Both the position numbers and the translations under genes were made by a program. The notes under the pieces are model-generated. The model did not search any database. It worked only from the letters and a program-made list of their open reading frames with translations, and was not told where the DNA came from. From Terriglobales bacterium (GTDB taxonomy: Bacteria; Acidobacteriota; Terriglobia; Terriglobales; Acidobacteriaceae), in assembly GCA_036511435.1 (NCBI GenBank), contig DATCCF010000088.1, positions 1 through 46,361 on the forward strand: a stretch of 46,361 nucleotides of DNA, written 5' to 3'. This document shows positions 3,440 to 31,548 of this stretch, piece by piece. Every line of letters begins with the position of its first letter. The stretch's first letter is position 1.

Positions 3440-3441
3440 TT

Positions 3442-6527: not shown

Positions 6528-6549
6528 GGCACCTAGACTACACAAATAA

Positions 6550-13124: not shown

Positions 13125-13199
<75 letters not shown>

Positions 13200-13284: not shown

Positions 13285-14493
13285 TCACTGAGCGGCCTCC
13301 GACGCCGGCTTGGCTGCCAGCAACTGCTCCATGTACTGCCGCTGGGCATCCAACGCCTTGGGGAAATTTCCGTGGGTGTAGACGGCGGTCATCTCGGGCT
13401 TGCTGTGACGAAGTAGGGTTTGGGAGACCGTGATGTCCTTGGTGGTCTCGTTCGCCCACGTGCTCAAGCTGTGGCGAAACCGGTGCCAGCCAAAACTCTC
13501 ACCCTTGGCTACCAACCCCAGAGCCACGACGGCTGGCTTAACGAAGTCGGCGTTCATCGTCTGACCCCACAGCGGTTGCTTTCCCTTCAGCTTCGACGAG
13601 GCAAAAATGAAGTCCTCGTCCTTGTCGTACGGGGTTTGCTGCCTCCAATCGGTGAGGAACGCTGCCAGCGCCGCACACATCGGGACGGGTGCGTTGCTGG
13701 CCTTGGTCTTCGTCCGATTCTGCATCTCGCCCCGCCTGAACGTCTGGTGAATGTAGATGCGATTGTTCGCCCACTCCACATGCTTCCACGTCAAGCCAAG
13801 ACACTCGGAGATGCGGACGCCCGTGGAAGCGACCAAAAGCACGGCAATCTTCACCGGGTAGGGGAGTCGCTCCAGCAGAGCGATGACCTGCTCGGGCAAG
13901 AGCACCTTCACTTCATCTTGATCCTCCTCGCTGGCCGGAATGGTGACCTTATCCAGAGGATTGCGGATGGAGCGAATCTCGTTGTGGTCAACAAAGCTGA
14001 AGACCAACGACATGATTCCCGCAATCTTTGAGCAGGTTTCCCACACATAGTCTTCGCCGTCGTGGAGGTCAACGAGCCAGTTGCGGATGGCGAGAGGCTT
14101 CATCTCCTCAGCGACGGCATCTTTCCAACGAGGAAGGATATGGTTGTTAATGTGGTACTCATACGTTTCGATGGTGCCTTTCGTCTTGCGGCGACCGTCC
14201 TTCTTGCGGAATGGCAAGCCGTCCTTGACGTAGGCGGCACAAAATTCGCCAAAAGTCGGCTTACCAGAGAGGGGGTTATTGATGTACTTTTCGACCAGGC
14301 CAAGCTCACCAACTTTGAGCCAAGCGGACGTTTCATCATCTCCGATGTCAGCGACCAGACCGAGCCTGACGGCGTTTTCTACCATCTCACCGTCCCTCTC
14401 TCTCTGCCTTTGGTAACACCAGAGCCAAATCATCCCATCCGCCCGTTCACGCTGCCTGAGCCAGCCGCGTGCTTTAACTTCCTTGTTAGCCAT
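13285..14493 (-). CDS. tyrosine-type site-specific integrase
   Basis: Catalytic boxes: LLVASTGVRISECLGLTW (Arg box), HRFRHSLSTWA (HxxR) and LLRHSKPEMTAVYTH (Tyr). Located next to the tRNA gene. Confidence 0.9.
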   Translation of the reverse strand: MANKEVKARGWLRQRERADGMIWLWCYQRQRERDGEMVENAVRLGLVADIGDDETSAWLKVGELGLVEKYINNPLSGKPTFGEFCAAYVKDGLPFRKKDGRRKTKGTIETYEYHINNHILPRWKDAVAEEMKPLAIRNWLVDLHDGEDYVWETCSKIAGIMSLVFSFVDHNEIRSIRNPLDKVTIPASEEDQDEVKVLLPEQVIALLERLPYPVKIAVLLVASTGVRISECLGLTWKHVEWANNRIYIHQTFRRGEMQNRTKTKASNAPVPMCAALAAFLTDWRQQTPYDKDEDFIFASSKLKGKQPLWGQTMNADFVKPAVVALGLVAKGESFGWHRFRHSLSTWANETTKDITVSQTLLRHSKPEMTAVYTHGNFPKALDAQRQYMEQLLAAKPASEAAQ

Positions 14494-17924: not shown

Positions 17925-19304
17925 GTGAGGATTCGTGTCCCAAGGGGAGTGGTATTTGTAGCGGCCCTTGTTGCGGTCGTAATTCCTGTCTCGCGCTACG
18001 CCTACACGTGGCTCCGCGACATTTCTGCCGACAAACACATCAATACTTCCGGTCGTTCGGAGCATCCGGAACGTTCCACGGATCCGCAAGTCCTCCTGTC
18101 GGCGGCCAATCGCCTTTACTGGCTAAATAACGGGCCAAAAGCTGCCCCGTTGTACGCGAAAGCCGAGAGTCTCTTCGCAAATCGAGGCGATACTCGGAAT
18201 GAGCTCTACGCCAAGATTGGCCGCCTCAGGTCAGAAGCCGAGACGATGTCTTTCGTCGATCTTTCGCGATTCTTGAACGACCAGTTGCAGAACCCGATCA
18301 TGCGTAACGATCCCAAGTTGCGCGTCTGGTGCCTCGCCGCAAAGGGGTACACCGACATCGAGATTGATTATCGAGCGGAGAAGCAAGACTGGTTGGAGGC
18401 CCAACAGATCGCAAAGAGTCTGGGGAACGATCGTTTAGCGACCAGGGCCTCCGGTGAATTGGGCGTAATCGCTTTCCTGGAGGGAAATTCCAGCCGGGCG
18501 GCGAAGCTCTTGGGCGGAGCCCTCGTCTCCACGATGGCTAATGGCGACGAGGGCGGTCAGATTCGCTTTTTGGAAATGCTAGGAAACGGCCTGGTAGAGG
18601 TCAACCGTCCCTCTGACGCTCTGATGTTTTTTGAGAGGGCTATCAAGATAGCGGAGGCTGACGAAGATTCCGGACTTCCTTTCATGGGGTACGAGGGAAA
18701 GGCGCAAGCGCTGGTTGCCTTAGGGAGACCAGATGAAGCAAAGAGGGTGCTGCAGGACGCTCTTGCAAAGGCCCGATCGCAACAGAAGCGCGGCCATGAG
18801 GCGCAACTGCTGATTGTCCTCGGCAAGCTCGCGGCGCAAACCGGAAACAAACAAGAGGCCATCGCCGATTTGGAGGATGCGGGGCAGTTCGCAGCAAGAG
18901 TCCAGTTCTACCGAATGGAAGCTGACGCCATGTTCGAGCTAGCGAAGCTTTATCGTGATTCCGGAGATCTCGCCGCCGCAGACGATCGTGCGACACAGGG
19001 TCTGGTCGCGAGCCAGCGTGTCGGAGATCGATACTACGTACCGCGGAACTTAACAATTTTGGCTGACTTGAAAGCACGACGCGGGCGCATTGCAGAAGCG
19101 AAGGCACTTTACAAGCATGCCGAAGACGTCATTGACGGCATGCTTGGCGGCGATGACTCCTATTGGAACAGTTCCATCGCCGCTGCCATGAGCCAGACTT
19201 ACCTCCAACACTTCGAACTCGTTGCGAAGGAGGCTGACACAGCCGGTGACGGCGTCTCCAGGCCTGAAGTACAGGAGGATGGCGGGCAGGGGAAGATCCA
19301 ATGA
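17925..19304 (+). CDS. TPR-repeat protein, apparently 3'-truncated (expected CHAT-type C-terminus missing)
   Basis: N-terminal TM, then multiple TPR-like repeats. The last ~20 aa (..DGVSRPEVQEDGGQGKIQ) look non-native. The ORF overlaps the convergent ORF 19050..20141 by 255 nt. Confidence 0.55.
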   Translation: MRIRVPRGVVFVAALVAVVIPVSRYAYTWLRDISADKHINTSGRSEHPERSTDPQVLLSAANRLYWLNNGPKAAPLYAKAESLFANRGDTRNELYAKIGRLRSEAETMSFVDLSRFLNDQLQNPIMRNDPKLRVWCLAAKGYTDIEIDYRAEKQDWLEAQQIAKSLGNDRLATRASGELGVIAFLEGNSSRAAKLLGGALVSTMANGDEGGQIRFLEMLGNGLVEVNRPSDALMFFERAIKIAEADEDSGLPFMGYEGKAQALVALGRPDEAKRVLQDALAKARSQQKRGHEAQLLIVLGKLAAQTGNKQEAIADLEDAGQFAARVQFYRMEADAMFELAKLYRDSGDLAAADDRATQGLVASQRVGDRYYVPRNLTILADLKARRGRIAEAKALYKHAEDVIDGMLGGDDSYWNSSIAAAMSQTYLQHFELVAKEADTAGDGVSRPEVQEDGGQGKIQ

Positions 19305-20141
19305 GTGGTAGCTGCGCTGGGATTCGAGCCATTCTTCGTCCAGTGGTGGTCGGTCCATCGAGTGGGAGATGCGGTGCAGTTCTAGGGTTGCTTCGACCAG
19401 CTCCTTCAGCGCCGGTTCAGTCGGTGCCGGGAAGGAATCCAAGGATTGTGAGGACTCTGACGATTCGCGGCTTTTGAGGCACTCGGGCAGGTCTTGGTCG
19501 AGTTTCGGGATCTCGTAAGAATCGGGGTCTTCCTCCCCTTCCTCCCATTCGACCATCTGCTCGATCCGGTTGCGGGCGTCCCAATCGTCATAGACCCGGA
19601 TCCAGCGATAGAGTGCTTGGCGCAGGGTTTCGTAGAAAGCCACTCCCATTCCTGGATGGCACGCCTCCAGTTCTTCAATCGTGCTCCCAATGCGCAACGG
19701 GAAGGACGACTCGGTGTTGAGCACCAGAAATAGGTGGCCATTGGAATCGGCACCAGAGTCGGAGTACCGGGCGTCGAAAATGGATTCTCCCAGCGTTAGG
19801 TACAACTCAAAGTGCTCAGCAATGACTTCCTGCCCGCGGTTTCGGAGAAAACAGCGGAACACAGAGTCGACCAGGGCGGCAGGAATTTTTCCTGCCGCGA
19901 TCCAGTCGGATTCAGTGGCGAGGTCGATTTCGACCAAGGCCTGAGCCAAGGAGTTTAGGTCGGAGCAGCCGAAGGTGATTCGGTTTCCGGCGTGGCCTAC
20001 TTCCAGCTTGGGTATTCCGATCAGGCTGGCGGGATTGGCCAGATACCCGCCCCGGGGAATACGGGATCTCCGCTTCCTTGCATGGAGAGAGCCCGTGCGA
20101 GAACACTGCTTGCTTCTTGCGAGTCTTTGCATTCGAGCCAC
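19050..20141 (-). CDS. PRTRC system protein F-like, probably 3'-truncated or fused
   Basis: Called from its position after PRTRC E and C homologs and from general resemblance (memory of TIGR03742). The last ~65 aa are antisense to the TPR gene. Confidence 0.5.
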   Translation of the reverse strand: MARMQRLARSKQCSRTGSLHARKRRSRIPRGGYLANPASLIGIPKLEVGHAGNRITFGCSDLNSLAQALVEIDLATESDWIAAGKIPAALVDSVFRCFLRNRGQEVIAEHFELYLTLGESIFDARYSDSGADSNGHLFLVLNTESSFPLRIGSTIEELEACHPGMGVAFYETLRQALYRWIRVYDDWDARNRIEQMVEWEEGEEDPDSYEIPKLDQDLPECLKSRESSESSQSLDSFPAPTEPALKELVEATLELHRISHSMDRPPLDEEWLESQRSYHSLDLPLPAILLYFRPGDAVTGCVSLLRNEFEVLEVSLAHGSGDGTVPIGVIAAKHAVNDVFGMLVKCLRFCNAPASCFQVSQNC

Positions 20142-20240
20142 CTGCGGATCAGTCCGGTCAGAGGGTTGGCACTGGCCTGCCGACCCTCTGATTCGCGGAT
20201 TTCTTGTAACAGCGATTGTTTGCTGGCGTCCGGCATCTCA

Positions 20241-20444
20241 TCAGCCCTTCGAGCCGATGGCCCGCTCAAAGCTGTAACGCAACCGGTCGCCAGCCGTTTC
20301 AGGCCCGGTAATGGCTGCATTGGTCAGCTCCGGAAACTGAGTGGCATAGAACGAACGGACCTCTTCAATCGAAAACTTGGGGTTCGGGTCCGCCAGAGTG
20401 GTGCCGTGATAAACGAACTCGCGTTCGACCAGGTTGATTTTCAT
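20241..20444 (-). CDS. PRTRC system protein C (small ubiquitin-like)
   Basis: 67 aa; REFVYHGTTLADPNPKFSIEEVRSFYATQFPELTNAAITGPETAGDRLRYSFERAIGSKG matches my recollection of the PRTRC_C family, including the C-terminal G-x-K-G. Confidence 0.75.
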   Translation of the reverse strand: MKINLVEREFVYHGTTLADPNPKFSIEEVRSFYATQFPELTNAAITGPETAGDRLRYSFERAIGSKG

Positions 20445-20887
20445 GATGCTTCACCTCCCTCTTGTGCTGCCCTCGTCTCCGCTTGCGCCATCGGCGCGAA
20501 CAGCGACGGCGCCTCCGGTTCCGGTGGGGCAGTCGTCGTCGCTGGTGTCGATTGAGTTGTTGGACTGCTCACGCTAGACGGCTTCGAGGTTTTCTTCCGT
20601 GCCTCTTCGCGAGCCGCTTTTGCGGCTGCATCCATTTCGGCTTTGGCAGACGCCAGGGTGGTTCGGAGTTGCAGGTGCGCCCCAGTGAATTCCACCAGTT
20701 GCTGAGGAAGGTCGCGGTCGAGTTCCTCGGCTGTGCCGGTGATTGCTAATGGGGTGGTGAGGGCGTTGTCTTCGGTGTCAGACGCCTTCTGCGGAACGAC
20801 GGTGGCTCTGATCGTATCGCCCTCAACAAGGGAGATCGTCAGTAGCAGCCTGCGTTTCCGCAGCAATGGCATCAGTTCTGTGAACAT
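20441..20887 (-). CDS. PRTRC system protein E
   Basis: MFTELMPLLRKRRLLLTISLVEGDTIRATVVPQK...NALTTPLAITGTAEELDRDLPQQLVEFTGAHLQL matches PRTRC_E (memory). ATG at 20887 preceded by GGAGGAG. ATGA overlap with protein C. Confidence 0.7.
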   Translation of the reverse strand: MFTELMPLLRKRRLLLTISLVEGDTIRATVVPQKASDTEDNALTTPLAITGTAEELDRDLPQQLVEFTGAHLQLRTTLASAKAEMDAAAKAAREEARKKTSKPSSVSSPTTQSTPATTTAPPEPEAPSLFAPMAQAETRAAQEGGEAS

Positions 20888-21056
20888 GGGTTCTCCTCCG
20901 CGTATAACGCGTTGCAGGATTCGATTCAATCGCAATGGGATGCAAACGGCCTTGAGGATTGGCCTAGCTCGTATACCTCAGGTCCTAGCGCAGGCACCGA
21001 CCGGGCGCTACTCAGACACAGTGGGTCTGCCACGGCAAGCGATGCCGGCTAACGAG

Positions 21057-22196
21057 TCAGCGACCTGAGGCGGATCGCGCGGAAGCTTCCAATATTCGCG
21101 CCTTGGTCCACCTGTAGACCTCATCTTTCCTTGATTGTGGCTTGACGATCCGCGAATGGTCGTAATCAAACGCAATGGGTGTCTCATCAGAGAGGTCGGA
21201 AGTGTAGAGAGCCGGAACGACGGCTACACCTGCGATCGGCTGAGTCTCATACGCGACGAACGTCAAAGGAAAGGGGCGAGCAGGCCCCCTTTGTCGGAGC
21301 ACCGTCGCCCAATCGCTCTGAATCGCTTGCAAGAAGCTTTGCGCGTCGCTAGGTCGCATGTCCCGAAACTGCGGATTGTGACTGACCCAGGCTGCGATCG
21401 AAGCTATCTCCGCACCAGCATTGGGAACCGCAAGAAAAATCGTCGCCCGGACGTGTTGAAGATATGGTCGCATGTCATCCTGACCGTTAAATGTTGAAAG
21501 CATGCGTTCAGTTATCAGACCACCCATGCTGTGTGCAATGAAGTAGATTTCGTCATAATCGCGAAAGAAATCCTCATCGCGCAATTGACGGCCAAAGCGC
21601 TCCGCAATTTGAGTAATGTTGGAGGCATTGCCCCGACATGGCGTAAGGTAACCGTAGACGTAAACATCGAAACTGACGAAATCCGGGTCATCGGCGACCA
21701 TCTCGGGCCAAGACCCTCGTGCTGTCGGACTCTTCCATGTGTTATCAATATCTCCTAGAACGCCGTGCACGAAAATTATCACCCGCTTATTTTTCTTTGG
21801 TGCAGAACTCCGCAAGTCAGAGGTTACAAAATGCGGTTCTGGAACTGGCAACGCCGGGCAGCGCTGTGAGTAGAGCCGCCACCCAGCGCCGATAGCAATT
21901 AGCGCTGCGACTGTAACTCCGGCAAGTACGTACCCTAAACGCCGACCTGGCTGGGTCGATTTAACTTGCGTATCGACTTCATCTCTCGAAGACGCATCGG
22001 ACGATTCCTCTGACGCCCCGAGCATTGATCGGATCAACAGGGTAGCGTCCGCGCCGGCTTGGTCCTTGGCAGCTACTCTCTCCTGGTAATACTGCTGAAT
22101 AATTTTCAGTTTGTTTGTGGGGTCTCGGTCGATGCGCGCATTCAACTCGTGCATCTGTCGGAGTAGAGCAGAGTCGCTGTCGCTCTGGCCTGTCAC
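21057..22196 (-). CDS. membrane-anchored alpha/beta-hydrolase (serine esterase/lipase-like)
   Basis: N-terminal cytoplasmic helix region, a TM (LGYVLAGVTVAALIAIGAGW), then VIIFVHGVLGD...IYFIAHSMGGLI (GxSxG nucleophile elbow) ...AFDYDHSRIV (candidate His). GTG start overlaps the upstream stop (GTGA). Confidence 0.7.
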   Translation of the reverse strand: MTGQSDSDSALLRQMHELNARIDRDPTNKLKIIQQYYQERVAAKDQAGADATLLIRSMLGASEESSDASSRDEVDTQVKSTQPGRRLGYVLAGVTVAALIAIGAGWRLYSQRCPALPVPEPHFVTSDLRSSAPKKNKRVIIFVHGVLGDIDNTWKSPTARGSWPEMVADDPDFVSFDVYVYGYLTPCRGNASNITQIAERFGRQLRDEDFFRDYDEIYFIAHSMGGLITERMLSTFNGQDDMRPYLQHVRATIFLAVPNAGAEIASIAAWVSHNPQFRDMRPSDAQSFLQAIQSDWATVLRQRGPARPFPLTFVAYETQPIAGVAVVPALYTSDLSDETPIAFDYDHSRIVKPQSRKDEVYRWTKARILEASARSASGR

Positions 22197-22558
22197 CTGA
22201 GTGCTGCCCGACGGAAAACTGGAATAACGTCCGCGTCGGCTGTGGCGAAGTATCTATTGAACCTGTCCGGGAGCGTCTCTGGAATCTTGGTCGGGTCCTC
22301 GAACTCGTTATCATCCAGCACGCCGGAAGGTGTTAATACTTTGTAGCGACGTTCAAGAAGACCGGCATGCTCCGCCTCGCCCAGCGCACCGGCCAGGTCC
22401 AACGGGTTGAAGCTTTTCAGTTCTTTGGCTAGGGCGGCCGGATTGATGACGTCAACCGAAGCATGCGCGCGGATCCACCCGTCCAGAGCCCTCAGGGCGT
22501 CTCCATAGCGTGGTGTCTTATTTGCTAAATCCTCGAAGCTGATCGGTGACATACTCAA
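22193..22558 (-). CDS. hypothetical protein (121 aa), middle gene of a three-gene operon
   Basis: TTG start in the ORF track; an ATG two codons later is an alternative. Overlaps the upstream gene by 41 nt and the downstream gene by 4 nt. No family recognised. Confidence 0.5.
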   Translation of the reverse strand: MSMSPISFEDLANKTPRYGDALRALDGWIRAHASVDVINPAALAKELKSFNPLDLAGALGEAEHAGLLERRYKVLTPSGVLDDNEFEDPTKIPETLPDRFNRYFATADADVIPVFRRAALR

Positions 22559-23558
22559 TATCCAAAGCCGAACAGTGGCTAGCGATGAGAACTTCGTGGG
22601 TTTCCTTTACACCCAAGAGAGTTCGCAATTCCCGAGAAGGAACGTTAGACGATTCGCTCGTCTTCCATCTTACCGCTAGCGCCTTCAGCTTGCCTCCATC
22701 ATTCACAAACTTGTTTACTGCGTTACGAGCGAGAGTACTCTGAAAAAGGTTACCTTGGTCGGAGATCGCTTGGAATTCCCCGATTACTTCATTCGTTTCA
22801 TCGATAACACCCGCATCTCGAAAATCGTAGACGTTTTCATGCCTGTGTGCTTCCAACACGATCCGTCGCATGCAGGGAGTCACAGGCCATTCAGAAAACT
22901 GCGCGCGCGTTAGGGCAGGCGATAACATCCGCCAGACCATTTGCTGCCATTCTTCAATTCTGCGGCGAGACTCGTCCCGCTGTATGCGGATTTCCAAGAG
23001 GTCCGGAGCGTTCCACCTGGCGCTCAACACAATTCTAAGGGGCTCCTCCACGAACTCTCGCCAGATGTAGCCACCAGGGCGATGTTCTACCTTGCCGGTC
23101 GCCCTCACAATCGCCTTCTGCCCGTAGATCTTGAGAAGCCAATCGTTGGGTTTCTTGCTGCCTGGAACCCGAAGATCGCTATACGAGAAACTGTCAGGAA
23201 TGAGTGTCAGATTCGGAAAACCGGCAACCATGCTTTCTTTCCGCGTGCCCCACAACTGTCGTGCCACGTTCTCGAGAGAAAGCGCTGCCGCTAATTTCTT
23301 GGTTTCGGGGCGATAGTAAAATATGTGCTGGTTTCCATTTTCTTCAGCATCTCTGATGAGATCGAATACTTCGGAGATGCTGACCGCATTTGAGGTGATC
23401 GCCTCGCGCAGGTTGCGTCGAACGAGGTCCTCTTTCTTCTCAGCGGTGATTCGAACATCTTTCGTTTTGTGGACACGAAGAAGGTCGCGAACCTGGTCGG
23501 CTGTGCAAAGATCCTCGACCAGACGCAAAGCTTCTTCTAGATGTTTAGGATCGGCCAT
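22518..23558 (-). CDS. hypothetical protein (~346 aa), first gene of a three-gene operon
   Basis: Long ORF, no motif recognised. ATG at 23558 (MADPKHLEE...); the ORF is open to a TTG at 23582. Confidence 0.55.
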   Translation of the reverse strand: MADPKHLEEALRLVEDLCTADQVRDLLRVHKTKDVRITAEKKEDLVRRNLREAITSNAVSISEVFDLIRDAEENGNQHIFYYRPETKKLAAALSLENVARQLWGTRKESMVAGFPNLTLIPDSFSYSDLRVPGSKKPNDWLLKIYGQKAIVRATGKVEHRPGGYIWREFVEEPLRIVLSARWNAPDLLEIRIQRDESRRRIEEWQQMVWRMLSPALTRAQFSEWPVTPCMRRIVLEAHRHENVYDFRDAGVIDETNEVIGEFQAISDQGNLFQSTLARNAVNKFVNDGGKLKALAVRWKTSESSNVPSRELRTLLGVKETHEVLIASHCSALDIEYVTDQLRGFSK

Positions 23559-23690
23559 TTTGTCTATGCGCCGGGACAGCAACTATAGCATGAACGTGAC
23601 AACCGGCGAAATATTGGGCTGAGGTTCGACTTTTCTGGCTGCTACCGTCTCAGCCGCAGCCTATGATCGTTTACTTGTGATCCTGGATTT

Positions 23691-23993
23691 TCACCAACCC
23701 TTGCGGAGCTCAAATCTGCCGTCTTCCTCAAGCAGACTGAATTTGTACCGCTTGCCCCTGAACCCTACCTCGATCCCAGCGCCGAACCTGACGTAAAGGA
23801 GCTGTTCCGGTGTAACGCCAACGAGTTTTCCGCCAAAAGACTCTGGAAATCCGCGCTCAGAATACTGACCAAGATCTGCTTCTGCCACAATAGTGGTGAT
23901 TGCGCTTCTACGCTGGTATTGCTGAGCATCAGAGTCAATGAGGCTGGTGATCGAAAGAAGATATTGCATCGAAAAGACCCTACACATTCCCAC
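23691..23993 (-). CDS. small hypothetical protein downstream of the SNF2 gene
   Basis: ORF begins 15 nt after the helicase stop on the same strand. Start ambiguous (23993, 23987 or 23969). No family recognised. Confidence 0.35.
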   Translation of the reverse strand: MGMCRVFSMQYLLSITSLIDSDAQQYQRRSAITTIVAEADLGQYSERGFPESFGGKLVGVTPEQLLYVRFGAGIEVGFRGKRYKFSLLEEDGRFELRKGW

Positions 23994-24008
23994 TTGGTAC
24001 AGCCATGA

Positions 24009-26705
24009 CTACTGCCATCCCTTCATCAGCGCATCCCGTCGACTGGTGTTCTCCAGGACCTTCGTGCATGATTCCCAAGGCACCTTTTCAATTCGGTCGT
24101 ATTTGATTTCGAAGGGGTGCTGTTCGGGCAGAGCATTGATGGTTCTCTTGGCGCTCTCGATCTTGCCCAGCGCCACATCAATCCATACATCTTCAAGCAC
24201 ATCGGGGATTTGGCCGAACAATTGGTAGATCGACTGGAGCCGGCTGGAGAGAAGTTGATGCACTCGATCTTCCACCGAGTCCTTATAGCGCATGTTGTAG
24301 ACGTAGACCGTGTCCCGAAGTTGGCCGATCCGTTGGATGCGGCCTTTACGCTGCTCCAGACGCGTCGGATTCCAAGGAAGATCGAGGTTGATCAGCGTAC
24401 CAAGGCTTTGAAGATTCAACCCTTCGCTGGCTGCGTCTGTGCCGAGCAACAAGCGGATCTCATGTCGCCGGACCATCGCCTTCAGATCTTCGCGATCCTT
24501 TCGGGCATACTCCCCGTGCTGGATGACTCCTGACTTCTGGCTGCCTGCGTAAATCCCAATCAGTTCAGCCGGAAGCTCCGCCGAAAGGAGGTTGGCAAGC
24601 CACCAAACTGAGTCGAAGTACTGCGAAAAGATGATGCAGCCAAGGTTGAGCCAACCGCGATTCCGGAGTACGTCTCTTACGACCTCAAACTTCGGATCGC
24701 GTTCGCGGTTCGCCTCCAAGGAGTCCAGTAGCTCTTTGAGCTTTTGGCGCTCTGCCGAGGTGAGCGATCGAGCAGAATCAGGAGTCTGGTCATCACCGTC
24801 GCTGTCGTCATCTTCCTCGTCGAGGTCCTGCCATTCACCGAGCAGCTTCTGGGCAGTATTCATTCCTGCTTCAATGCTGCTTCCAATTCGTCGGAGTAGA
24901 AGCGTCTTCAGGAAACCGCTCGCCTGCATTCTGTGGCCCAACAATTCACAGAACTCTTCGGCCTTGTGGTAGGCGTCCATGAGATATGGAGGTAACTTAA
25001 CCGCCTCTTCGTCGCCCTCCCCGAACAGCTCTACTCTCACCGGCTTCAGATACGGTTCCCCGGTTTCAGGATCTGTCGTGTTCTCCAGGAACTCGCGGGT
25101 GCGTCGGACGATGTGCCGAATGAAGGGGTTGTGTTGCTCCACAAACACCTTGCCAACTCGACGAACCCTGGCCAAGTCTGGCTGCGACAGACTCCAGAGC
25201 GATTCCGGCGATGCCACGCAGTCTTCTTCGCGGAGCCGTAAAGCGCGGCGCATCAAAAGGAAGTCGTTCGATTCCGAGGCAGGCGGCAATGGGTTCCGCA
25301 TCCAGTCCCAGGCTTCATCTTAATCCTCGGGCAGCGTCCTCTTCACCATCACCATGTTCAGGGCTTCATCGGCGCGCCTCCAGTAGCTGCGCCAATTGTT
25401 ACCGAGCACGGATTCATTGTTGACTGCCAAAGCGTTGAGCAAATCCCAAGCCTCGATTGGGTACATCTGCACCGGCGTGGCCGTTGCCAGCAGCAAGCTC
25501 TTCGTGCGAGGAGAAATCGCGTAGAGGAACCGGAGCAAGTTGTTGGGATCGGGTTTCTCGCTATCGCGATTCGGCCCTAAGTTTCGCCGGCGTGCCCGGT
25601 GGCATTCATCTACCACCACACACTCGAAGGTCATTTCCTTGAGGATGTCAGCTACGTCAGAATCCCGAGTGATGAGTCCCTGGGAGATAAGTCCGACCCG
25701 GCGTGGGCAGCGCTTCACGCCTTCTGAACCGGCCACTGGGTGCTCGATTCCGTTCTCGTCAACCCAAGCTTTGCCAGTCCATACGGCGGAAGGCATGTCG
25801 AGCAGGGTCTTCATCTCGTCTTGCCATTGCCACAACAGCAGCTTCGGGGCGAGGACGAGAATCGGCCTGTCGCCGTAAAGAGCCGCCAGCATTGCCGACA
25901 GGGCGAGCTGGATCGTCTTCCCCAATCCGACCTGGTCCGCCAGAACGAAGCGGGCGCCATGTGGTCCACGGTGGGCATCGAACGCCAGATTGACGAAGTA
26001 TTTCTGGTGCTCCCACAATCCATATTCACGCCGATAGACAGGCGATTCCACGATCGTCGCCGCGGCTTCGGGCGCCTGCCGCCATACGTCGACTCCAGCT
26101 ATAACCGTTCGATGAGCAAGTCGTCCAATGTCCTCTATTACGAAGTCGGCCAGAGCCACCGCCGCTGGGCAGGTCCAGAGCGCATCAAACTCCTCCTGCA
26201 CCCAAGCGACCGCATCAGGAGAGTCGTCCTCCCACACAAGTTCGTAGTTCAACTTCCACGCCGCCAACGTCTCATTCGTGCTGCCCAGGAATGAAGTGCG
26301 AGTGCCGTCTGCCATGGTCACAACGCCAGCCTTGCCGTGCACCAAACCGAATTTCTCGGAGGGCAGTACCTTCACCTGCATCTTGCCGGAGCGGAGGAAA
26401 TCAAAGAGTCGACGAAACCGCTTCGGAGAATTCTCGTGAATCAGTTTTTCCGGTTCCGACGCGCACCACTCCCGCCGCATTGCGAGGTTGGCGGCGCGCG
26501 CTGTTTCCACATCCCTCGGGTTGAGGTCGGAATTGCACACCACCCGGATCAGGCCTGAGATGGATTCCAGCGCCTCGCCGGCAACTTCCAGAATGGAGGA
26601 GCTGAAGTAACCGGCTATGCGGTCGTAGCTTCGAGCCCCAATCAGTCTTTGGTTCAGGAATGAATGATCCAGCGGTTGCCTGCGTGATGAATATCGGTTT
26701 GCCAT
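24009..26705 (-). pseudogene. PLD-nuclease::SNF2-family helicase, interrupted by one in-frame TAA
   Basis: N-terminal HKD motif (LVHGKAGVVTMADGTRTSFLGSTNET). SNF2_N motifs (LADQVGLGKT, VVDECHRARRRN, LLLATATPVQ). Helicase C motifs (LLGTDAASEGLNLQ..., QRKGRIQRIGQ). ORFs 25320..27053 and 24009..25301 share a frame: ...KRTLPED-TAA-DEAWDWMRNPLPP. The ATG at 26705 fits the PLD N-terminus. Confidence 0.8.
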
Positions 26706-26758
26706 AGGTGCGGTTACACGCTGTCGTTTTCTAAAGCACCAGCCACGAGTCCAGCCGC

Positions 26759-27188
26759 ATGACCGTCGTCCTTCCACGTGGATATCTTCACTTCCATGGA
26801 GGCCAAGTAGCGCAGGATTATGATCAGGGACTTGCGCTGACCCCAGTACCCAGCCAATTCTGTTTTCAGCCAGTTCCGACCACCCATGCTGGACTCCCGT
26901 GGCTGAGGTACCTCCGTATGCGGGTACCCGGCGTGCACTTTTGGCCATTTGACGGCTGGGAGATTCCTGCAGGAAGGTCAGTCGTGGGCAGAAGTGTATC
27001 CATCTCTCTGGAGTAAAGGTTTCGCGCGAGAGGAGAGGAATGGCGATCAGCATGATGCCTTTTCGGTTGCAGCATGGATGCGTTACTCCGACCTTGATGG
27101 CAGGCTCGCGGACTTCTTGACTCCCGCGCTCACGCCTTCAGAGCAGGAGACAGCGCAGATTGAGGATTGGATACTTGGAGTTCAGTAA
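26759..27188 (+). pseudogene. frameshifted 3' remnant of a conserved hypothetical gene (possibly DUF429-like)
   Basis: Two overlapping frames join as ...VHFWPFDGWEIPAGRSVV / AEVYPSLWSKGFAREERNGDQHDAFSVAAWMRYSDLDGRLADFLTPALTPSEQETAQIEDWILGV, with the shift near 26985-26995. Only the C-terminal part of the family appears to be present. The family assignment is weak. Confidence 0.35.
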
Positions 27189-27285: not shown

Positions 27286-30144
27286 ATGTTCTCTTGGATT
27301 CCGATCTACACCGAGTTGGCGAAGAAACTCCTGCCGTATCGCGATCGCCAGAGCGAACTCATCGAAATGCTCAAAGCGCTGGAGGCCGACGGAATTCCTG
27401 TCGGCTCCATAGTGGACCGCGACAACGAAGGGAAGGAAATTCCGCTCGCGGTAATTGATCCCTTCACCTTTTACGCTTCATTCAACCGTGGCCTCACGAC
27501 GGACAACAGGAGACGAATATTGGCCTATCTCAAGACCAAGTTCGATCTCGAATCAGAAGTTCCTGCTGATTTCGAGGGAATCCCAGTGGTCGACGCGAGG
27601 CGTGCGTGGTTCTTTCCTTACAAGAACAAGCGCAAATCCGATGACATATCGAGTCTCTGGGCGCTCGGTGAAGCAGTCGTACAAGGCCCTCCGGAAGATC
27701 TCGACTCAAAACTCTTCGAGCGGTGTCTCCAAGTGGAGACAGTTGGCCCTGCAAAACTAACGATGGGCATGTTTTGGCTCAATCCAAAACGGTATATCGC
27801 ATGCGATTCGAATTGCCGCAAGTTTTTCAAACTCAAAGGCATCGACGGCGAGGTTGAAACCCTATCGTCTTACCTGCAATTGGTGAAGAACGTGAACGCA
27901 AAGCTCGGTACCGAATACCCAGAGATTTCTCGAACCGCGTGGGAAACGGCCAATCCGGGAGATAAGGAGATAAACCGTGATAAACCTCCACAATTCGCTA
28001 TCACACCGCAGCAGCTCGAGAAGTTGTGGACGCGCTTCAATAAACGTATCTCTGGATTTACCGACTTTGGATCACCTGGTGATCGTTTCCACGAGGAGGA
28101 GTTGGACTACAAGCGGAACGCCCTGAAGCGTTACGAAGAGGAAATCGGCAATGCGCAGTTGCGAAAGTTAGTTCAGGCGGGGCAAGGCAATAAAGCTCGC
28201 GAGGAAATAAGCAGGCGCATCACGACGAATCTCGTGGCATATCAGTCCTGGCGGCCGAGTATTGGTTCTGACGATGAGAAAAGCTCTGTAGTGCTCAGGG
28301 CGTTCCTCGATGCGGCTGAAACTCCGTATGCTGGGCCATCAACAGTTGAGCCCATTGTCCAAGCCATTGTCGCGCAGGGGATGACTCCACATTGGGATAC
28401 GCTGTCTACGCTCCTATGGGCCATGCGTCCCTCCGACTATTTTCCGGTGAAAATCAAATACTACCGAAAACTGGCGGAGGAACTGGGACATCCTCTTCCC
28501 GATGGGCCGCCCACGGGCGAGAGATTCGATCAAGTATTGAGATTTGGTCAGGCATTCTGGCGAGCATTAGAGGCGCAGAATCCAGCGGACTGGGTTGATG
28601 TTCAGAGCTTTATCTGGGTCGTCTGCCCGACGAGTTACAAAGATGGGACAGCGGGCCCAGAGCAACCAAGCAATGAATCTGAGGAAGAATCGACCATCCT
28701 CAATGACGAATCAAGCGCCATGAATCTCATCCTGTACGGACCGCCGGGTACTGGCAAGACATACGAGACAATCGAGCGCGCAGTGAAGGTCATCGACCCA
28801 GCTTTTGCTCGGGAAAACTCGGGGAACCGCGTGGCGCAAAAGCGGCGATTCGACGAGCTGGTTCTGCAAGGGCAGGTCGAGTTCATCACGTTTCATCAGT
28901 CGTATTCCTATGAGGACTTCGTCGAAGGCATCCGGCCTGTTCTGGATGCGGATGAGGAAGGTGGTCCGCCTCGATACGAATGTCGACCGGGCGCCTTCAA
29001 GCGACTGGCATTCAATGCCCTATTCGATTGCCTTGAAAGGGCTGAGGCGGCTAAAGGGCTCGTTCCTTTCGATGCTCTGTGGAAAGCACTGCTTGCAAAG
29101 ATCGAATCGGATCCCGAAGCCAAGTACCGAGGATTATCAGACAAAACATCTTACCAATTGGCCCTGACTCAGAAGGGGAACATCGAGGGCGTCAATGTCC
29201 TGAGCGACAAGAAGTTCCTTTGCTCCCGCAAAATCCTCGAGCAAGTGTTTGATGCGAAGCGAAGCCAGGATGCCGTCACCGTTTCTGAAGTAATGGAAGT
29301 TGTGGCGCGCGGATGTCATTCGCAATTGGTGGCCGCGGTTTTTAACGAATTGCGCCGAATAGAGAAATCGCAGTTTCGGGGAAAGGTCCAACCCCCACGG
29401 CCCACGGCTCACACGGAGGACGAAAAAGCGGAAATTGTGCAGCGCTTTCTCGCCGAAGGTGAAAAGAGCGGGTACCAGTTAAAGCCTGAATCTCATTGGA
29501 ACCGATTTGTTTTGGTCATCGATGAAATTAACCGTGGCAACATCAGCAAGATACTCGGCGAACTCATCACCCTAATCGAGCCCGACAAGCGGCTTCGGAC
29601 AGGAGACAACCAAAACAGCTTAGTCGTAACCCTACCCTACTCCGGCGAGAAGTTTGCTGTTCCAGCCAATCTGTACGTCGTGGGAACAATGAACACTGCT
29701 GACAAGAGCATAGCCCTCGTAGACGTAGCCCTTCGGCGGCGATTCGAGTTTGAGGAATTACGGGTGGATCTGACGTTGTGTAGCGGCTTGAGCGAAAAGA
29801 TGCGATCGGTCCTTCAGGAACTCAACCGACGAATCGCTCTACGCAAGGATCGGGACCACCAGATTGGACACGCGTATTTCATCAGAGTGGAGGATGAGGC
29901 GCGCTTTAATCAGTGTTTCCGAAAGCAGATCATCCCCCTTTTGCAGGAGTATTTTTACAACGACTGGGACGGGCTCCGGTACGTCCTCGGTGAGAACTCG
30001 GGAACCGTGGATGGTGGGTTCATCCGCAAAATCAGCGGCGCTGATGTCAAAGAAGCCCGGACGAAGTGGCAGTGGTTCTTCGACGCGGATGCAGGCGATA
30101 TAGGTTGCTTGCAGACGCTGTGCAGTAGCTACTCAATCGTTTAA
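27286..30144 (+). CDS. mcrB: McrB-family AAA+ GTPase with a long (~480 aa) N-terminal region
   Basis: Walker A LILYGPPGTGKTYE, Walker B FVLVIDEINRGNISKILGELITLIEPDKR, and the McrB signature GTMNTADKSIALVDVALRRRFEF. Confidence 0.85.
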   Translation: MFSWIPIYTELAKKLLPYRDRQSELIEMLKALEADGIPVGSIVDRDNEGKEIPLAVIDPFTFYASFNRGLTTDNRRRILAYLKTKFDLESEVPADFEGIPVVDARRAWFFPYKNKRKSDDISSLWALGEAVVQGPPEDLDSKLFERCLQVETVGPAKLTMGMFWLNPKRYIACDSNCRKFFKLKGIDGEVETLSSYLQLVKNVNAKLGTEYPEISRTAWETANPGDKEINRDKPPQFAITPQQLEKLWTRFNKRISGFTDFGSPGDRFHEEELDYKRNALKRYEEEIGNAQLRKLVQAGQGNKAREEISRRITTNLVAYQSWRPSIGSDDEKSSVVLRAFLDAAETPYAGPSTVEPIVQAIVAQGMTPHWDTLSTLLWAMRPSDYFPVKIKYYRKLAEELGHPLPDGPPTGERFDQVLRFGQAFWRALEAQNPADWVDVQSFIWVVCPTSYKDGTAGPEQPSNESEEESTILNDESSAMNLILYGPPGTGKTYETIERAVKVIDPAFARENSGNRVAQKRRFDELVLQGQVEFITFHQSYSYEDFVEGIRPVLDADEEGGPPRYECRPGAFKRLAFNALFDCLERAEAAKGLVPFDALWKALLAKIESDPEAKYRGLSDKTSYQLALTQKGNIEGVNVLSDKKFLCSRKILEQVFDAKRSQDAVTVSEVMEVVARGCHSQLVAAVFNELRRIEKSQFRGKVQPPRPTAHTEDEKAEIVQRFLAEGEKSGYQLKPESHWNRFVLVIDEINRGNISKILGELITLIEPDKRLRTGDNQNSLVVTLPYSGEKFAVPANLYVVGTMNTADKSIALVDVALRRRFEFEELRVDLTLCSGLSEKMRSVLQELNRRIALRKDRDHQIGHAYFIRVEDEARFNQCFRKQIIPLLQEYFYNDWDGLRYVLGENSGTVDGGFIRKISGADVKEARTKWQWFFDADAGDIGCLQTLCSSYSIV

Positions 30145-30150
30145 CTCGCC

Positions 30151-31548
30151 TTGGAGGGCGCTCTGCCGAGAGAGATACGGCTCTGTGAATGGTCGCGGGC
30201 AGATCACGGACTGAGCGCCGACGTGTGCCGCGACATCGATGCGGCTGCAGAGGCTTGGCGTATCCTCAACGGTTTGTCCGTCTCGCCGCTCTCCTTTGCT
30301 GGGCCGGATGGCCAACAGCTTTGTGCCCGGCAATACGTGGGTGTAATCGAGGTGGACGAGGTTGCGCTTGAAATCTACCCAAAGCTCGATGCTGCTTTGA
30401 TCGAGGTCAGCGAAAGACAGCCATTATCGTCTGCCACGACGATTGATTCGGTGATGCGCAATCTCTTGTGGATGCTGGAGGTCGCTGATCATCGCGATCT
30501 CGCCGAGACCGCAACTGCGCACCTTGAGGAGGCGCCTACCTCATTTTTCGATCTGTTCGCCTACTTGCTCGGGAAGAACCTTTTGCCTGAACTGGAGCGG
30601 GGCGTCGCCCATGCCTATGTAAAATTCACAGACGATCTCAAGGCCGTACGTGGGCGGATCGACCTCGTCGAACAGGTGACCAGAAACTGGAACCGGCTCG
30701 ACCGGGTGTTGTGCGCCTGGGATGAATTCACGTTGGACACCGCGATTAATCGCCTTTTCAAGTGCGCCTGCCGATTCCTATCCGAACGGGTGAACTATTT
30801 GGAGGCATCACGTCTGCTTCTGGATTGCCAGGCACTAATGGGCGAGGTCGAAGATGTTTCTCCCGCCACCGCGCTGTCGGGCGTTTGGAATTTGCGGTTT
30901 GACCGGTCTATGGAGCGGTTCAGAACAGCTTTCGATCTTGCCCGACGGCTACTAGCAGGGATCGGGCACAACCTCGGTGTGGGCAGTGCCAATACATTTG
31001 TTTTCCTGTTAGACATGAACCAAGTTTTCGAGAACTACGTGCACGCTGTGCTGGAATCGCACTTCAACACTGCCGTAGAAGAGCAAAAATACGTCGGTAA
31101 ACTCCTCGAAGTCCGCGCGGGAGGGATTTCTCAGCTGGCAGACTACTACTGGCGGCACGAAACAACCATTTGGATCGGCGATGCCAAATACAAACACCTG
31201 GCAAAGGGCCTGCAACGTGCGCTGCGTTTTAGTGACTTGGAAGGCGAACAGAACGGGGTGGACGAGGCAGCTCCTCTGGCAGGTCATGTCCTGAGCCCAG
31301 CGGACGTCCGACAGCTTACCGTCTATGCCGAGCTAGTCCGGCGGCGGGAACGAATGGCAACGACTCCAGACCTGATGTTGCTTTATCCGTTTGTCGGTCC
31401 TCCCGCCGAATGCATCCCAGACAGAGTCGCTGCATGGAATGGATCCACGTTTTGGCTCATGCCGGTCCTCGTGCGAGCTCAGGACTTCGTCGGTACCGCA
31501 ATTCGATTTCCCGTCTTCGAAGCCCCAGCAATCGACCCTGTCCCGTAG
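30151..31548 (+). CDS. mcrC: McrC-like nuclease subunit
   Basis: Starts (TTG) 7 nt after mcrB. C-terminal PD-(D/E)xK-like IWIGDAKYKHL, typical of McrC. Confidence 0.8.
   Translation: MEGALPREIRLCEWSRADHGLSADVCRDIDAAAEAWRILNGLSVSPLSFAGPDGQQLCARQYVGVIEVDEVALEIYPKLDAALIEVSERQPLSSATTIDSVMRNLLWMLEVADHRDLAETATAHLEEAPTSFFDLFAYLLGKNLLPELERGVAHAYVKFTDDLKAVRGRIDLVEQVTRNWNRLDRVLCAWDEFTLDTAINRLFKCACRFLSERVNYLEASRLLLDCQALMGEVEDVSPATALSGVWNLRFDRSMERFRTAFDLARRLLAGIGHNLGVGSANTFVFLLDMNQVFENYVHAVLESHFNTAVEEQKYVGKLLEVRAGGISQLADYYWRHETTIWIGDAKYKHLAKGLQRALRFSDLEGEQNGVDEAAPLAGHVLSPADVRQLTVYAELVRRRERMATTPDLMLLYPFVGPPAECIPDRVAAWNGSTFWLMPVLVRAQDFVGTAIRFPVFEAPAIDPVP

Follow-up and report, generated by a model that had tools for sequence, protein, structure and literature searches.

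A mobile three-gene cassette with interchangeable effectors as a candidate abortive-infection-type defence family

Gene organization of the locus

The window, i.e. the whole stretch of 46,361 nucleotides from a Terriglobales bacterium that was analysed, carries at 21057-23558 three minus-strand genes, here called A, B and C, with products of 346, 119 and 379 aa, respectively. They lie in an integrative island at a tRNA-Val gene, in which no phage structural genes were found and which also carries a Tn7-like element, a TOTE primase-helicase and AbiE. The main features are:

13125-13199: tRNA-Val
13285-14493: integrase
19050-20935: PRTRC_E, Prok_Ub and alpha-hel2
21057-22196, minus strand: gene C, ORF with a GTG start, 379 aa; putative effector of this locus, with an adaptor, one transmembrane (TM) helix and an alpha/beta hydrolase
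21114-21797, minus strand: alpha/beta-hydrolase domain of C, DUF676/PGAP1-like lipase/esterase type (residues 134-361, from Pfam and PHROG matches)
21156-21158 and 21528-21530, minus strand: codons of His347 and of Ser223 (nucleophile in AHSMGG), which with the oxyanion pair H144-G145 are the key residues of C, by invariance in homologs
21882-21938, minus strand: single predicted TM helix of C (residues 87-105, Kyte-Doolittle scan)
22002-22196, minus strand: helical adaptor domain of C (N-terminal ~60-65 aa); no other part of gene 3 is shared by the effector classes
22193-22552, minus strand: gene B, ORF with an ATG start at 22552, 119 aa (121 aa from the TTG at 22558); obligate partner of A
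22518-23558, minus strand: gene A, ORF with an ATG start at 23558, 346 aa; conserved cytoplasmic component, presumed sensor
24009-27053: PLD-SNF2
27286-31548: McrB-like AAA_5 and McrC

The tRNA gene, the PRTRC genes, PLD-SNF2 and McrBC named in the original prediction were all found, and the three same-strand genes with overlapping boundaries were found as described. The ORF list gives A as 22518-23582 from a TTG (354 aa) and B as 22193-22558 from a TTG (121 aa). For A the ATG at 23558 was chosen from an alignment with 24 homologs, in agreement with the predicted size of about 346 aa; for B the homologs agree on the ATG at 22552 (MSPISF..., 119 aa), and the predicted 121 aa holds only for the TTG. 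The overlap between A and B measures 35 nt with the ATG start of B (41 nt with the TTG), and B and C share the GTGA at 22193-22196, a 4-nt overlap. Both overlaps are conserved and not due to chance, since gene 3 begins within an identical 4-nt overlap in 36 of 64 related loci and A/B overlaps of ~30-45 nt recur among the relatives.

Conservation and distribution of the cassette

We collected 92 related loci, among which the gene after a complete A could be evaluated in 73 and the gene after B in 64. B was located directly downstream of A in 73/73 loci and was followed by a same-strand third gene in 64/64, and the trio persists at ~23-30% A identity. In five distant relatives (P0180, P0199, P0237, P0238 and P0262) B is fused to the C-terminus of A (B-HMM scores of 39-64 bits), and the fusion gene is in turn followed by an effector-like gene. 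The three genes are kept together, in line with the original prediction, and because A and B were invariably found side by side and in some cases in one polypeptide, these two proteins work as one unit.

The A family comprises at least 549 clusters (50% identity, E<=1e-3). Acidobacteriota and other soil bacteria are the main hosts of the cassette, which has a patchy distribution and non-conserved neighbours. Only 3 cassette loci were recovered from the 2.9 million viral contigs of IMG/VR and no match was found in 50,697 phage records or in plasmid collections, and the cassette is therefore not prophage-borne like Rex. Decayed copies were observed as well, for instance a truncated A gene with doubtful overlapping ORFs beside it, as well as copies with frameshifts and fragments of the N-terminus, a pattern that is typical of defence islands.

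The neighbouring genes of the relatives include some with a role in defence (e.g. a type I HsdR (7.5e-190), a type IIG restriction-modification protein (1.5e-77), SoFic, an AbiO/Nhi-like protein, TIR and Schlafen/AlbA_2), several toxin-antitoxin pairs (HicAB, MazEF, BrnT and HigBA-like) and genes of mobile elements (TrwC relaxase and rolling-circle Rep, and six integrases and two resolvases among 121 neighbouring ORFs). Its surroundings, unrelated from locus to locus, abound in integrases, transposases, toxin-antitoxin pairs and restriction/defence genes, and the cassette moves between them. The expectation that homologs would not sit in metabolic operons was borne out by these mobile, toxin-antitoxin and defence neighbourhoods, although several related loci also have ordinary metabolic neighbours. 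Directly downstream of C in the window lies PRTRC_E, and the trio adjoins co-directional PRTRC genes both here and in L092; this association was absent from the other loci examined and appears limited to the lineage of the window. No conserved immunity gene was found downstream of gene 3, the neighbours there being different in every locus examined, and a potentially toxic effector that lacks such a gene must therefore be gated. The loci show the operational traits of a defence system, namely a conserved gene set, a patchy mobile distribution and co-location with known defence genes.

Effector swapping on a common adaptor

The third gene was found to be modular. In tblastn searches only residues ~15-60 of C matched loci whose gene 3 is otherwise unrelated, and this stretch follows the motif ELNxRI..P..K..IIQxYY.E.V.A.D..GAD..L.IRS (alignment A4). 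Beyond the adaptor, eight C-terminal classes with at least seven unrelated modules were distinguished; the modules are mostly membrane-associated and comprise 3-TM and 2-TM proteins, a ~190-aa class, two families of TM-anchored alpha/beta hydrolases and a PNP-type nucleoside phosphorylase (PNP_UDP_1 domain at 3.2e-14 in L013). In most family members gene 3 encodes a 3-TM protein of ~160 aa, and full-length homologs of C follow A-B in L001, L032/33, L050-54, L080/81 and L092/93. The alpha/beta hydrolase does not define the cassette, as other effectors can take its place.

The identity of the adaptor tracks that of A (Spearman 0.64), as does the identity of B (Spearman 0.73), and effector swaps occur inside single A clades. 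For instance, L020 and L023 have near-identical adaptors, followed by a 3-TM module in the former and by a TM helix plus an unknown domain in the latter. A swapped effector on a co-evolving adaptor of ~60 aa is a pattern typical of immune cassettes. Several types of gene 3 product match known abortive-infection effectors, i.e. the PNP_UDP_1 protein of L013, the LmuA-matching hydrolase and the TM-only proteins.

The membrane-anchored hydrolase C

By profile matches above the curated cut-offs, C is assigned to the alpha/beta-hydrolase superfamily (Abhydrolase_6, 29.8 bits with a cut-off of 26.3; DUF676, 21.7 bits with a cut-off of 20.3); DUF7379 was also matched, as were phrog_1846 (1.5e-10) and, partially, the PADLOC LmuA model PDLC03851 (1.6e-8; residues 191-276 of C on positions 57-122 of 343, the region of the nucleophile elbow). 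In 7 homologs of C the invariant residues are H144, G145, S223, G225, G226, N274, P275, Q276, H347, K352 and P353, and the nucleophile elbow (A221-H-S223-M-G225-G226), the oxyanion HG and the catalytic His347 are conserved. The alignment of these 7 sequences contains no invariant Asp or Glu that could be the catalytic acid; the residue preceding His347 is D or N and is therefore unlikely to be the catalytic acid. Of the predicted layout the helical N-terminus, the single TM helix and the hydrolase with its AHSMGG were recovered, but the proposed DH pair was reduced to the histidine. Of the two flanks of the TM helix the one on the N-side (K, R, R) carries more positive charge, from which we infer an N-in/C-out orientation that would place the hydrolase domain on the periplasmic side.

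Proteins A and B

Neither A nor B had a significant match in Pfam (none at E<=1 for A), NCBIfam, PADLOC (PADLOC-DB v2.0.0, 5027 models) or PHROGs, and 45 diverse homologs of A were without significant Pfam or PADLOC match. The statement in the original prediction that both products match nothing recognised therefore stands for their sequences but not for the fold of A. The AlphaFold model of A (pLDDT 90.5, pTM 0.87) begins with four helices that by eye look SAP/HeH-like (residues 1-73) and continues with two alpha/beta sheet domains, the first of which is basic. Foldseek, proposed earlier as a check, returned phage 'RdgC' proteins as best matches of this model in BFVD (E 1.5e-7 to 1e-6, TM 0.35-0.50, ~330 columns) and in the PDB CENP-N (E 3.9e-4), Iml3 and Chl4 (range 3.9e-4 to 1.5e-2); the TM-scores of the fold matches are modest (0.3-0.5). 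RexA has been grouped structurally with RdgC-like, CENP-N, Chl4 and Iml3 proteins (PMC11077077). The modelled fold of A thus resembles that of RdgC-like and CENP-N/Chl4/Iml3 proteins, a fold class that includes lambda RexA.

Neither the RexA structure 8TWQ nor the RdgC structures of E. coli and Pseudomonas were among the top 50 PDB matches of the A model. Comparison of the A1 and A3 profiles with lambda RexA by hhalign gave probabilities of 0.3% and 0.1%, and that of A3 with a 4-sequence RexA profile 0.2%, which lends no support to homology. Membership of A in the RdgC family (PF04381) was rejected, as no profile match was obtained for A or the 45 homologs.

Residues that are near-invariant or fully invariant among 45 diverse members of the A family are E72, E73, G75, Q77, D128, R130, W140, K143, Y145 and R191. 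Several of the most conserved residues are acidic and lie on a beta-sheet (E72, E73, D128, D139 and E189), which suggests a ligand or catalytic site and not plain DNA-backbone binding; the invariant acidic face may be an enzymatic or small-molecule site instead of a DNA-binding surface.

The model of B (pLDDT 88.9) shows a winged-helix-like fold with a small beta extension, and its Foldseek matches were weak (E>=0.18) and mostly to winged-helix regulators (Fur, MarR, ArsR, TubR and TFE). B is acidic (pI 5.1; family median 5.3), and a pI of about 5.2 does not fit a DNA-binding winged helix.

Proposed function and alternative explanations

We consider it somewhat more probable than the opposite that the trio is a self-contained, horizontally mobile conflict cassette, likely an abortive-infection-type defence against phages or other mobile genetic elements with a Rex-like logic. 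Since A and B match none of the 5027 PADLOC models, the link to defence is made by context and architecture, and judged from sequence the cassette is a strong candidate for a new defence family of this type. The original proposal of a novel defence system with a membrane- or lipid-directed effector is in keeping with the synteny, the neighbourhoods and the effector swapping. In a more specific version, to which we give slightly less than an even chance, an unnamed family of immune cassettes (at least 549 A clusters) would use A, with its SAP-like and RdgC/RexA-fold parts, and the winged-helix B, which are sometimes fused, to sense infection and fire at least seven interchangeable and mostly membrane-directed effectors through the dedicated ~60-aa adaptor, making it a chromosomal counterpart of lambda Rex with a diversified killing module.

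In the proposed mechanism the A-B complex would be the cytoplasmic sensor of a cue that stems from the phage, either nucleic acid or nucleoprotein; A is modelled with an RdgC/RexA/CENP-N-type fold, as in non-specific DNA binders, and also has an N-terminus resembling SAP and a first sheet domain that is basic. Upon sensing, A-B would switch on the effector through the adaptor. The effector in the window, a signal-anchored hydrolase of the Ser-His lipase/esterase type, might then attack envelope lipids and cause membrane integrity to collapse; in sister loci a small multi-pass membrane protein could play this part as a pore or channel, like RexB when activated by RexA. The infected cell would stop growing or die before the phage cycle is completed.

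The alternative that survives best, which we nevertheless regard as unlikely, is an addiction or toxin-antitoxin-type module that mainly stabilises its host mobile element, phage defence being secondary, with C as membrane toxin and A-B, or B alone as a winged-helix autorepressor, as antitoxin or regulator. The occurrence on integrative and conjugative elements and beside other toxin-antitoxin pairs, the tight translational coupling of the genes, the potentially toxic effectors with no separate immunity gene and the winged-helix-like fold of B, as found in many antitoxins and autoregulators, would all fit. However, A (346 aa, with two domains and many invariant polar residues) far exceeds the typical size of an antitoxin; B, being acidic and in some relatives fused to A, is hardly a free transcriptional repressor; and effector swapping on a common adaptor marks sensor-effector immunity, not classical toxin-antitoxin pairs. 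The toxin-antitoxin and defence readings are not mutually exclusive.

That A-B binds DNA on behalf of the mobile element, for instance to control excision, replication or partition, with gene 3 as an accessory membrane tether, seems to us very improbable. The predicted RdgC/RexA-type fold of A, the adjoining PRTRC genes in the window and L092 and the regulatory role of RexA independent of RexB (PMC11077077) speak for such a service. The lineage-limited PRTRC link, the lack of a consistent association with one particular class of mobile element among the loci and the repeated exchange of enzymatic and pore-type modules, for which a tether has no need, speak against it. A role of this kind would parallel the effect of RexA on the lysis-lysogeny switch of lambda and the modulation of RecA by RdgC.

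Two further explanations have hardly any credibility. Lipase-type and pore-forming modules are common among antibacterial toxins, and the conserved N-terminus and variable C-terminus of gene 3 resemble the layout of a polymorphic toxin against competing bacteria, with a trafficking domain in front of the toxin and A and B as export or loading factors; B even has a weak match to Pfam Imm3 (E 0.022), but this stays below the threshold (15.2 bits versus 25), gene 3 is not followed by a cognate immunity gene specific to its class, neither secretion-system genes nor PAAR, Rhs, LXG or VENN-type domains turned up in the trio or among the genes around it, and the short cytoplasmic helical N-terminus and the TM helices would hold the protein in the membrane of its producer. 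A housekeeping or stress operon for remodelling of envelope lipids, with C as membrane lipase/esterase regulated by A and B, would agree with the bona fide DUF676/PGAP1-type hydrolase and with the metabolic neighbours of some relatives, but not with a hydrolase that the cassette can do without, TM-only, PNP or unknown modules taking its place in close relatives, nor with the patchy distribution, non-conserved neighbours and decayed copies or the position of the window trio in an integrase-bearing island among defence genes.

If the defence role is confirmed, the cassette would represent a new defence family that escapes Pfam, NCBIfam, PHROGs and PADLOC v2 and is widespread among soil bacteria, in particular the Acidobacteriota, whose immune repertoire is poorly known. 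It would connect the fifty-year-old and mechanistically unclear Rex paradigm, in which a soluble DNA-binding sensor gates a membrane effector, to a far wider range of systems. The combination of the same sensor with pore-, lipase- and PNP-type effectors is a natural swap experiment that could show how an RdgC/RexA-type fold transmits its signal. With the 60-aa adaptor there would be a new means of coupling proteins to each other, portable between effectors, and with the signal-anchored alpha/beta hydrolase an accessible example of an abortive-infection effector directed at envelope lipids.

Comparison with known systems

RexAB-type systems include RexA/RexB of lambda, the gp30/31 type of Sbash, CarolAnn and Butters and PP_5643/5644 of P. 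putida. They are encoded by prophages, as a rule next to the immunity repressor, and exclude superinfecting phages by depolarising the membrane. In these systems a soluble protein of the RexA fold class is paired with a small multi-pass membrane effector (PMC12894663). As in RexAB, the gene of a soluble protein, here with a predicted fold of the RdgC/RexA/Chl4-Iml3 class, lies in most loci of the family ahead of one for a small multi-pass membrane protein, with B in between in the trio, and in the proposed logic a cytoplasmic sensor would likewise activate a membrane effector and bring about growth arrest or abortive infection. The likeness is one of fold class only, as comparisons of sequences and profiles showed no resemblance of the trio to RexA or RexB (hhalign of the 3-TM effector with RexB gave a probability of 0.5%, i.e. 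no similarity). The trio moreover has an obligatory winged-helix-like B and an additional N-terminal helical domain in A, its effector has a dedicated N-terminal adaptor on which hydrolase, PNP and TM modules are swapped, and it is neither prophage-borne nor located beside a cI-type repressor. RexB has 4 TM segments, whereas its counterpart in the window has one TM helix and a hydrolase, and that of sister loci is the 3-TM protein of ~160 aa.

RdgC is a recombination-associated protein that binds DNA as a ring-shaped dimer. Phage 'RdgC-like' proteins come closest in structure to the A model, a predicted similarity at the level of the fold that is not accompanied by a Pfam RdgC match. To our knowledge RdgC genes are not coupled to B-like or effector genes, and we know of no counterpart in RdgC of the invariant acidic residues of A.

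The LmuA effectors of Lamassu occur in several variants, hydrolase and lipase types among them. With Lamassu the trio shares an alpha/beta-hydrolase-type domain as one of several interchangeable effectors, C matching the LmuA model. This match covers the nucleophile-elbow region only, A and B are unrelated to Lamassu proteins and no SMC-like LmuB or LmuC was found in or near the trio. Assignment to Lamassu was rejected on these grounds, and that to any system of PADLOC-DB v2.0.0 because A, B and the 45 homologs of A were without match.

Modular phospholipase, TM and PNP effectors are known from CBASS, Pycsar, Thoeris and Detocs-style systems. Unlike these, the trio lacks a cyclase, a TIR, a kinase or any other enzyme known to generate a signal, and its coupling apparently runs via a protein adaptor, no SAVED, CARF or SLOG domain having been detected. 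What it would have in common with them, by analogy, is the effector repertoire itself: a lipid hydrolase, small TM proteins and a PNP-type enzyme, swapped on a constant sensing module.

Conservation of the three-gene unit

The three co-directional genes with overlapping boundaries described in the original prediction are conserved as a unit in their relatives, and the first two products (A and B), reported there as unrecognised, are indeed without a significant match in Pfam, NCBIfam, PADLOC and PHROGs. The A/B overlap measures 41 nt, or 35 nt when counted from the ATG, and B and C share GTGA.

22518-23582 (from TTG), minus strand: gene A; 346 aa from the ATG at 23558, the start set by homolog alignment
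22193-22558 (from TTG), minus strand: gene B; the ATG at 22552 gives 119 aa, and this start (MSPISF...) is kept in homologs
21057-22196, minus strand: gene C, an ORF of 379 aa with a GTG start
23691-23993, minus strand: ORF of 100 aa without a Pfam match, flanked by gene A and the PLD-SNF2 gene

A search with A returned 149 clusters, all annotated as hypothetical; none has a Pfam domain, and most come from Acidobacteriota. An exhaustive profile search yielded 549 representatives at 50% identity (E<=1e-3), 430 of them with E<=1e-10. The loci sampled comprised 13 genomic, 65 metagenomic and 3 viral-contig loci, others being reached via protein look-ups; no match to the trio was found in plasmid and cultured-phage collections. 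A word-index limit kept a search with the single B sequence to 6 proteins, and homologs of B were therefore recovered by tblastn and an HMM applied to the loci. A B homolog followed A, or was fused to it, in every locus where A was complete and at least 330 nt of sequence lay beyond it (73/73). Where 450 nt or more remained past B, a same-strand ORF of at least 140 aa always began within 160 nt of the B stop (64/64 loci), and in 36 of the 64 this third gene starts with the 4-nt overlap of the window. The order was still present at ~23-30% identity of A. In five distant relatives A and B are fused (467-519 aa), and the B-family HMM covers the C-terminal extension of the fusions end to end (39-64 bits); an effector-like gene follows the fusion in both of the two that were looked up.

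Several copies are decayed: A is cut short in L069 (with adjoining overlapping ORFs of uncertain nature), divided between two reading frames in L012, present as an N-terminal fragment only in L074 and L076, and called as two ORFs of 94 and 249 aa in L092. The 100-aa ORF upstream of gene A was considered as a further member; it has no counterpart in any of the related loci and is thus unlikely to belong to the system. A promoter and terminator scan of 20800-24100 gave none on the minus strand and a lower number of sites than shuffled sequence; this result is uninformative, and the consensus applied may not fit the promoters of Acidobacteria.

The third gene: a conserved adaptor with exchangeable effectors

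Searched with tblastn, C gave a full-length match in some loci and a match to residues ~15-60 only in many others. When the region of gene 3 after residue 65 was clustered, eight classes were obtained.

Classes of the region after residue 65 of gene 3
~160 aa, three TM helices: 19 loci
~190 aa, no predicted TM helix: 16 loci
TM helix and DUF676-like hydrolase (the type of the window): 11 loci
Different alpha/beta-hydrolase with a C-terminal TM anchor: 4 loci; also L075 and L090/91
Proteins with two TM helices: 3 loci
TM helix and a part without assignment, 333 aa: 2 loci
PNP_UDP_1 phosphorylase-superfamily domain (E 3.2e-14): 1 locus (L013, Gemmata)
Degraded copy: 1 locus (L012)

With loci ordered by identity of A, single clades hold several effector classes. 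In the clade of the window (A at least 55% identical) the TM-plus-hydrolase, three-TM and 333-aa types all occur. The adaptors (the N-terminal ~60-aa helical segment of gene 3) of L020 and L023 are almost the same, yet their C-termini are unrelated. In a second clade the hydrolase of the window type is joined to a different adaptor variant, one also found with ~190-aa effectors. The identity of the adaptor tracks that of A (Spearman 0.64), as does that of B (Spearman 0.73). Since effectors are swapped within A clades and adaptor and B follow A, the invariant system is A, B and the ~60-aa adaptor, to which different effectors can be attached. The adaptor profile (A4, ~68 aa) gave one match among 5.8 billion proteins, in a search whose E-values are too strict for such a short domain.

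The ~190-aa class, the second most common, consists of proteins of 183-196 aa without a predicted TM helix or a Pfam match (L005, L008, L010, L011, L046, L048, L049, L055, L057-L063 and L085); they share an Asn/Gly-rich motif (NITYNF..ANFGTQIGNI), a helical middle and a conserved hydrophobic C-terminal tail (LW..FGP.I..FFG).

Properties of the three proteins

The Foldseek comparison put forward in the original prediction returned a coherent though weak set of PDB matches for A and only weak matches for B. The predicted model of A (pLDDT 90.5, pTM 0.87) begins with four helices and continues with two domains that each combine a sheet with helices, and its PDB matches were CENP-N (E 3.9e-4), then Iml3 and Chl4. 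The best matches in BFVD were phage proteins annotated as RdgC (E 1.5e-7 to 1e-6, TM 0.35-0.50). Two profiles of A (A1 and A3) found nothing under E 0.07 among PDB sequences, and a CYTH/triphosphate-tunnel fold was rejected, as it was represented by weak PDB matches only (E 0.03-0.17, TM at most 0.3). The first of the two sheet domains is basic (pI 9.9). Across the A family, the residues conserved best are largely charged (E72, E73, Q77, H78, D128, R130, D139, K143, Y145, E189 and R191), and the acidic ones among them (E72, E73, D128, D139 and E189), several of which lie on the first beta-sheet, would not be needed by a protein that only binds the DNA backbone, which could point to a site for a ligand, a metal or catalysis.

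The matches of B (model pLDDT 88.9) were chiefly to winged-helix regulators. Because B is acidic (pI 5.1, with a family median of 5.3) despite this winged-helix-like fold, it may serve to contact other proteins and not to bind DNA.

The assignment of C as an alpha/beta-hydrolase with one TM helix and an intact nucleophile holds: it scores above the curated cut-offs of Abhydrolase_6 and DUF676 in Pfam, partially matches the PADLOC model of the LmuA effector, has one hydrophobic helix (residues 87-105) and carries Ser223, which, like H144-G145, His347 and an NPQ motif, is invariant in its homologs. The Asp of the proposed DH pair does not hold, being D or N in homologs, and no acidic triad residue could be assigned from the homolog alignment. 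The charge around the TM helix suggests an N-in/C-out topology, by which the hydrolase may face the periplasm.

Genomic neighbourhood

The trio lies, as originally described, in a tRNA-Val island between PRTRC remnants and a PLD-SNF2/McrBC cluster.

13125-13199: tRNA-Val(CAC)
13285-14493, minus strand: tyrosine integrase
19050-20935, minus strand: PRTRC_E, Prok_Ub and alpha-hel2
24009-27053, minus strand: PLD-SNF2 helicase in two ORFs, 18 nt apart
25320-27053, minus strand: first of these ORFs, with PLDc_2 and SNF2 N-terminal domains
24009-25301, minus strand: second of these ORFs, with Helicase_C
27286-30144, opposite strand to PLD-SNF2: McrB-like AAA_5 protein
30151-31548, opposite strand to PLD-SNF2: McrC
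33999-39734, minus strand: Tn7-like transposition module (TnsAB/TniB/TniQ) inside the island, including a minus-strand protein of 844 aa with TnsA-like N-terminal, rve and Mu-transposase C domains
36049-37200, minus strand: TniB
33999-36092, minus strand: long TniQ with several HTH domains
40180-42636, minus strand: AEP primase of a TOTE conflict system fused to a helicase (AEP-TOTE, E 1.5e-94)
42644-43528, minus strand: AbiEii, adjoining the TOTE primase-helicase
43528-44139, minus strand: AbiEi

The adjacent TOTE primase-helicase and AbiE genes add to the evidence that a defence island takes up the whole right half of the window. The split PLD-SNF2 gene is either disrupted or naturally split. 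A repeat of the tRNA-Val 3' end (attR) was not found elsewhere in the window, so the other boundary of the island is either beyond its limits or has decayed. In order along the window, the integrase gene is followed by those for an RNase H-domain protein and a TPR protein, and then by the PRTRC genes.

The PRTRC cassette of the window is truncated, lacking E2 and ThiF, and its alpha-hel2 ORF overlaps an opposite-strand TPR gene (17925-19304) by ~255 nt. At the equivalent position in L092, a close relative whose B is 95% identical, 3292-6596 holds the full set of PRTRC_E, Prok_Ub, a 300-aa protein, Prok-E2_D and ThiF, beyond which come a TIR and a TPR protein. Among the loci examined this lineage alone showed the association, and for that reason the trio was not regarded as part of the adjoining PRTRC cassette.

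Within ~10 kb of the trio, the relatives have neighbours that are never identical, indicating that the cassette moves on its own. We found HicAB, MazEF, BrnT, a P63C protein, Schlafen/AlbA_2, ImmA/IrrE-HTH pairs, DDE transposases, integrases, TniB/TniQ, YhcG, Tn3, a TrwC relaxase, a rolling-circle Rep and Gp49/HTH toxin-antitoxin pairs flanking both sides; the 121 ORFs lying within 7 kb of the trio in another 12 loci included six tyrosine integrases and two resolvases. Strong PADLOC matches included a type I HsdR (7.5e-190) and a type IIG restriction-modification protein (1.5e-77), and further ones a PD-T4-6-like kinase, SoFic and an AbiO/Nhi-like protein. The expectation that homologs occur in mobile, toxin-antitoxin or defence settings (integrases, toxin-antitoxin pairs, restriction-modification, TIR) was thus supported in the loci examined, with ordinary metabolic neighbours also present in some relatives.

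A ~225-aa protein without assignment and an HTH_3/Peptidase_M78 (ImmA/IrrE-type) protein were encoded beside the trio in three loci from different A clades (L083, 6419-8240; L084, 6704-8495; L002, 11976-13796), and this arrangement may represent a carrier element that recurs. A DDE_Tnp_1 transposase is encoded immediately upstream of A in L083 and L084.

A candidate immune cassette

Several features jointly form the signature expected of an abortive-infection-type immune cassette with sensor and effector: a fixed, sometimes fused A-B core with a co-evolving adaptor and repeated module exchange, swapped modules that are membrane-directed or PNP-type and come without an immunity gene, and a mobile, patchy distribution with decay and with defence and mobile neighbours. 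In the proposed mechanism, A-B would detect an infection cue in the cytoplasm, most plausibly a nucleic acid or nucleoprotein complex because of the fold class of A, and would switch on the effector via the adaptor; in the window this putative effector, a signal-anchored Ser-His lipase/esterase-type hydrolase, would then damage the envelope.

Among the explanations that we rate lower, an addiction or toxin-antitoxin-type module is compatible with defence, and a DNA-binding module serving element maintenance was also weighed. A polymorphic antibacterial toxin is likewise rated lower and is opposed by the lack of an immunity gene and of a secretion context. Housekeeping lipid metabolism is contradicted by the effector swapping. 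We consider the sensor-effector family a well-supported, testable candidate.

Comparison with Rex systems

Literature searches in open-access papers and bioRxiv, on RdgC/RexA in defence and on variable-effector systems, found papers on Rex and no description of the trio. The paper on the RexA structure places RexA, RdgC, Iml3 and Chl4 in one fold of non-specific DNA binders (PMC11077077), and RexAB-type systems combine a protein of such a fold with a small multi-pass membrane effector (PMC12894663). We compared A profiles with RexA and the three-TM effector with RexB by hhalign and found no similarity in either case; the RexA structure (8TWQ) was outside the best 50 Foldseek PDB matches of A. 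Since every hhalign comparison with RexA and RexB was negative, the trio was not filed under the Rex family. The overall logic is already known; none of the libraries searched contains A, B or the adaptor. Although by no sequence test a member of the Rex family, the trio is like Rex in its proposed working logic.
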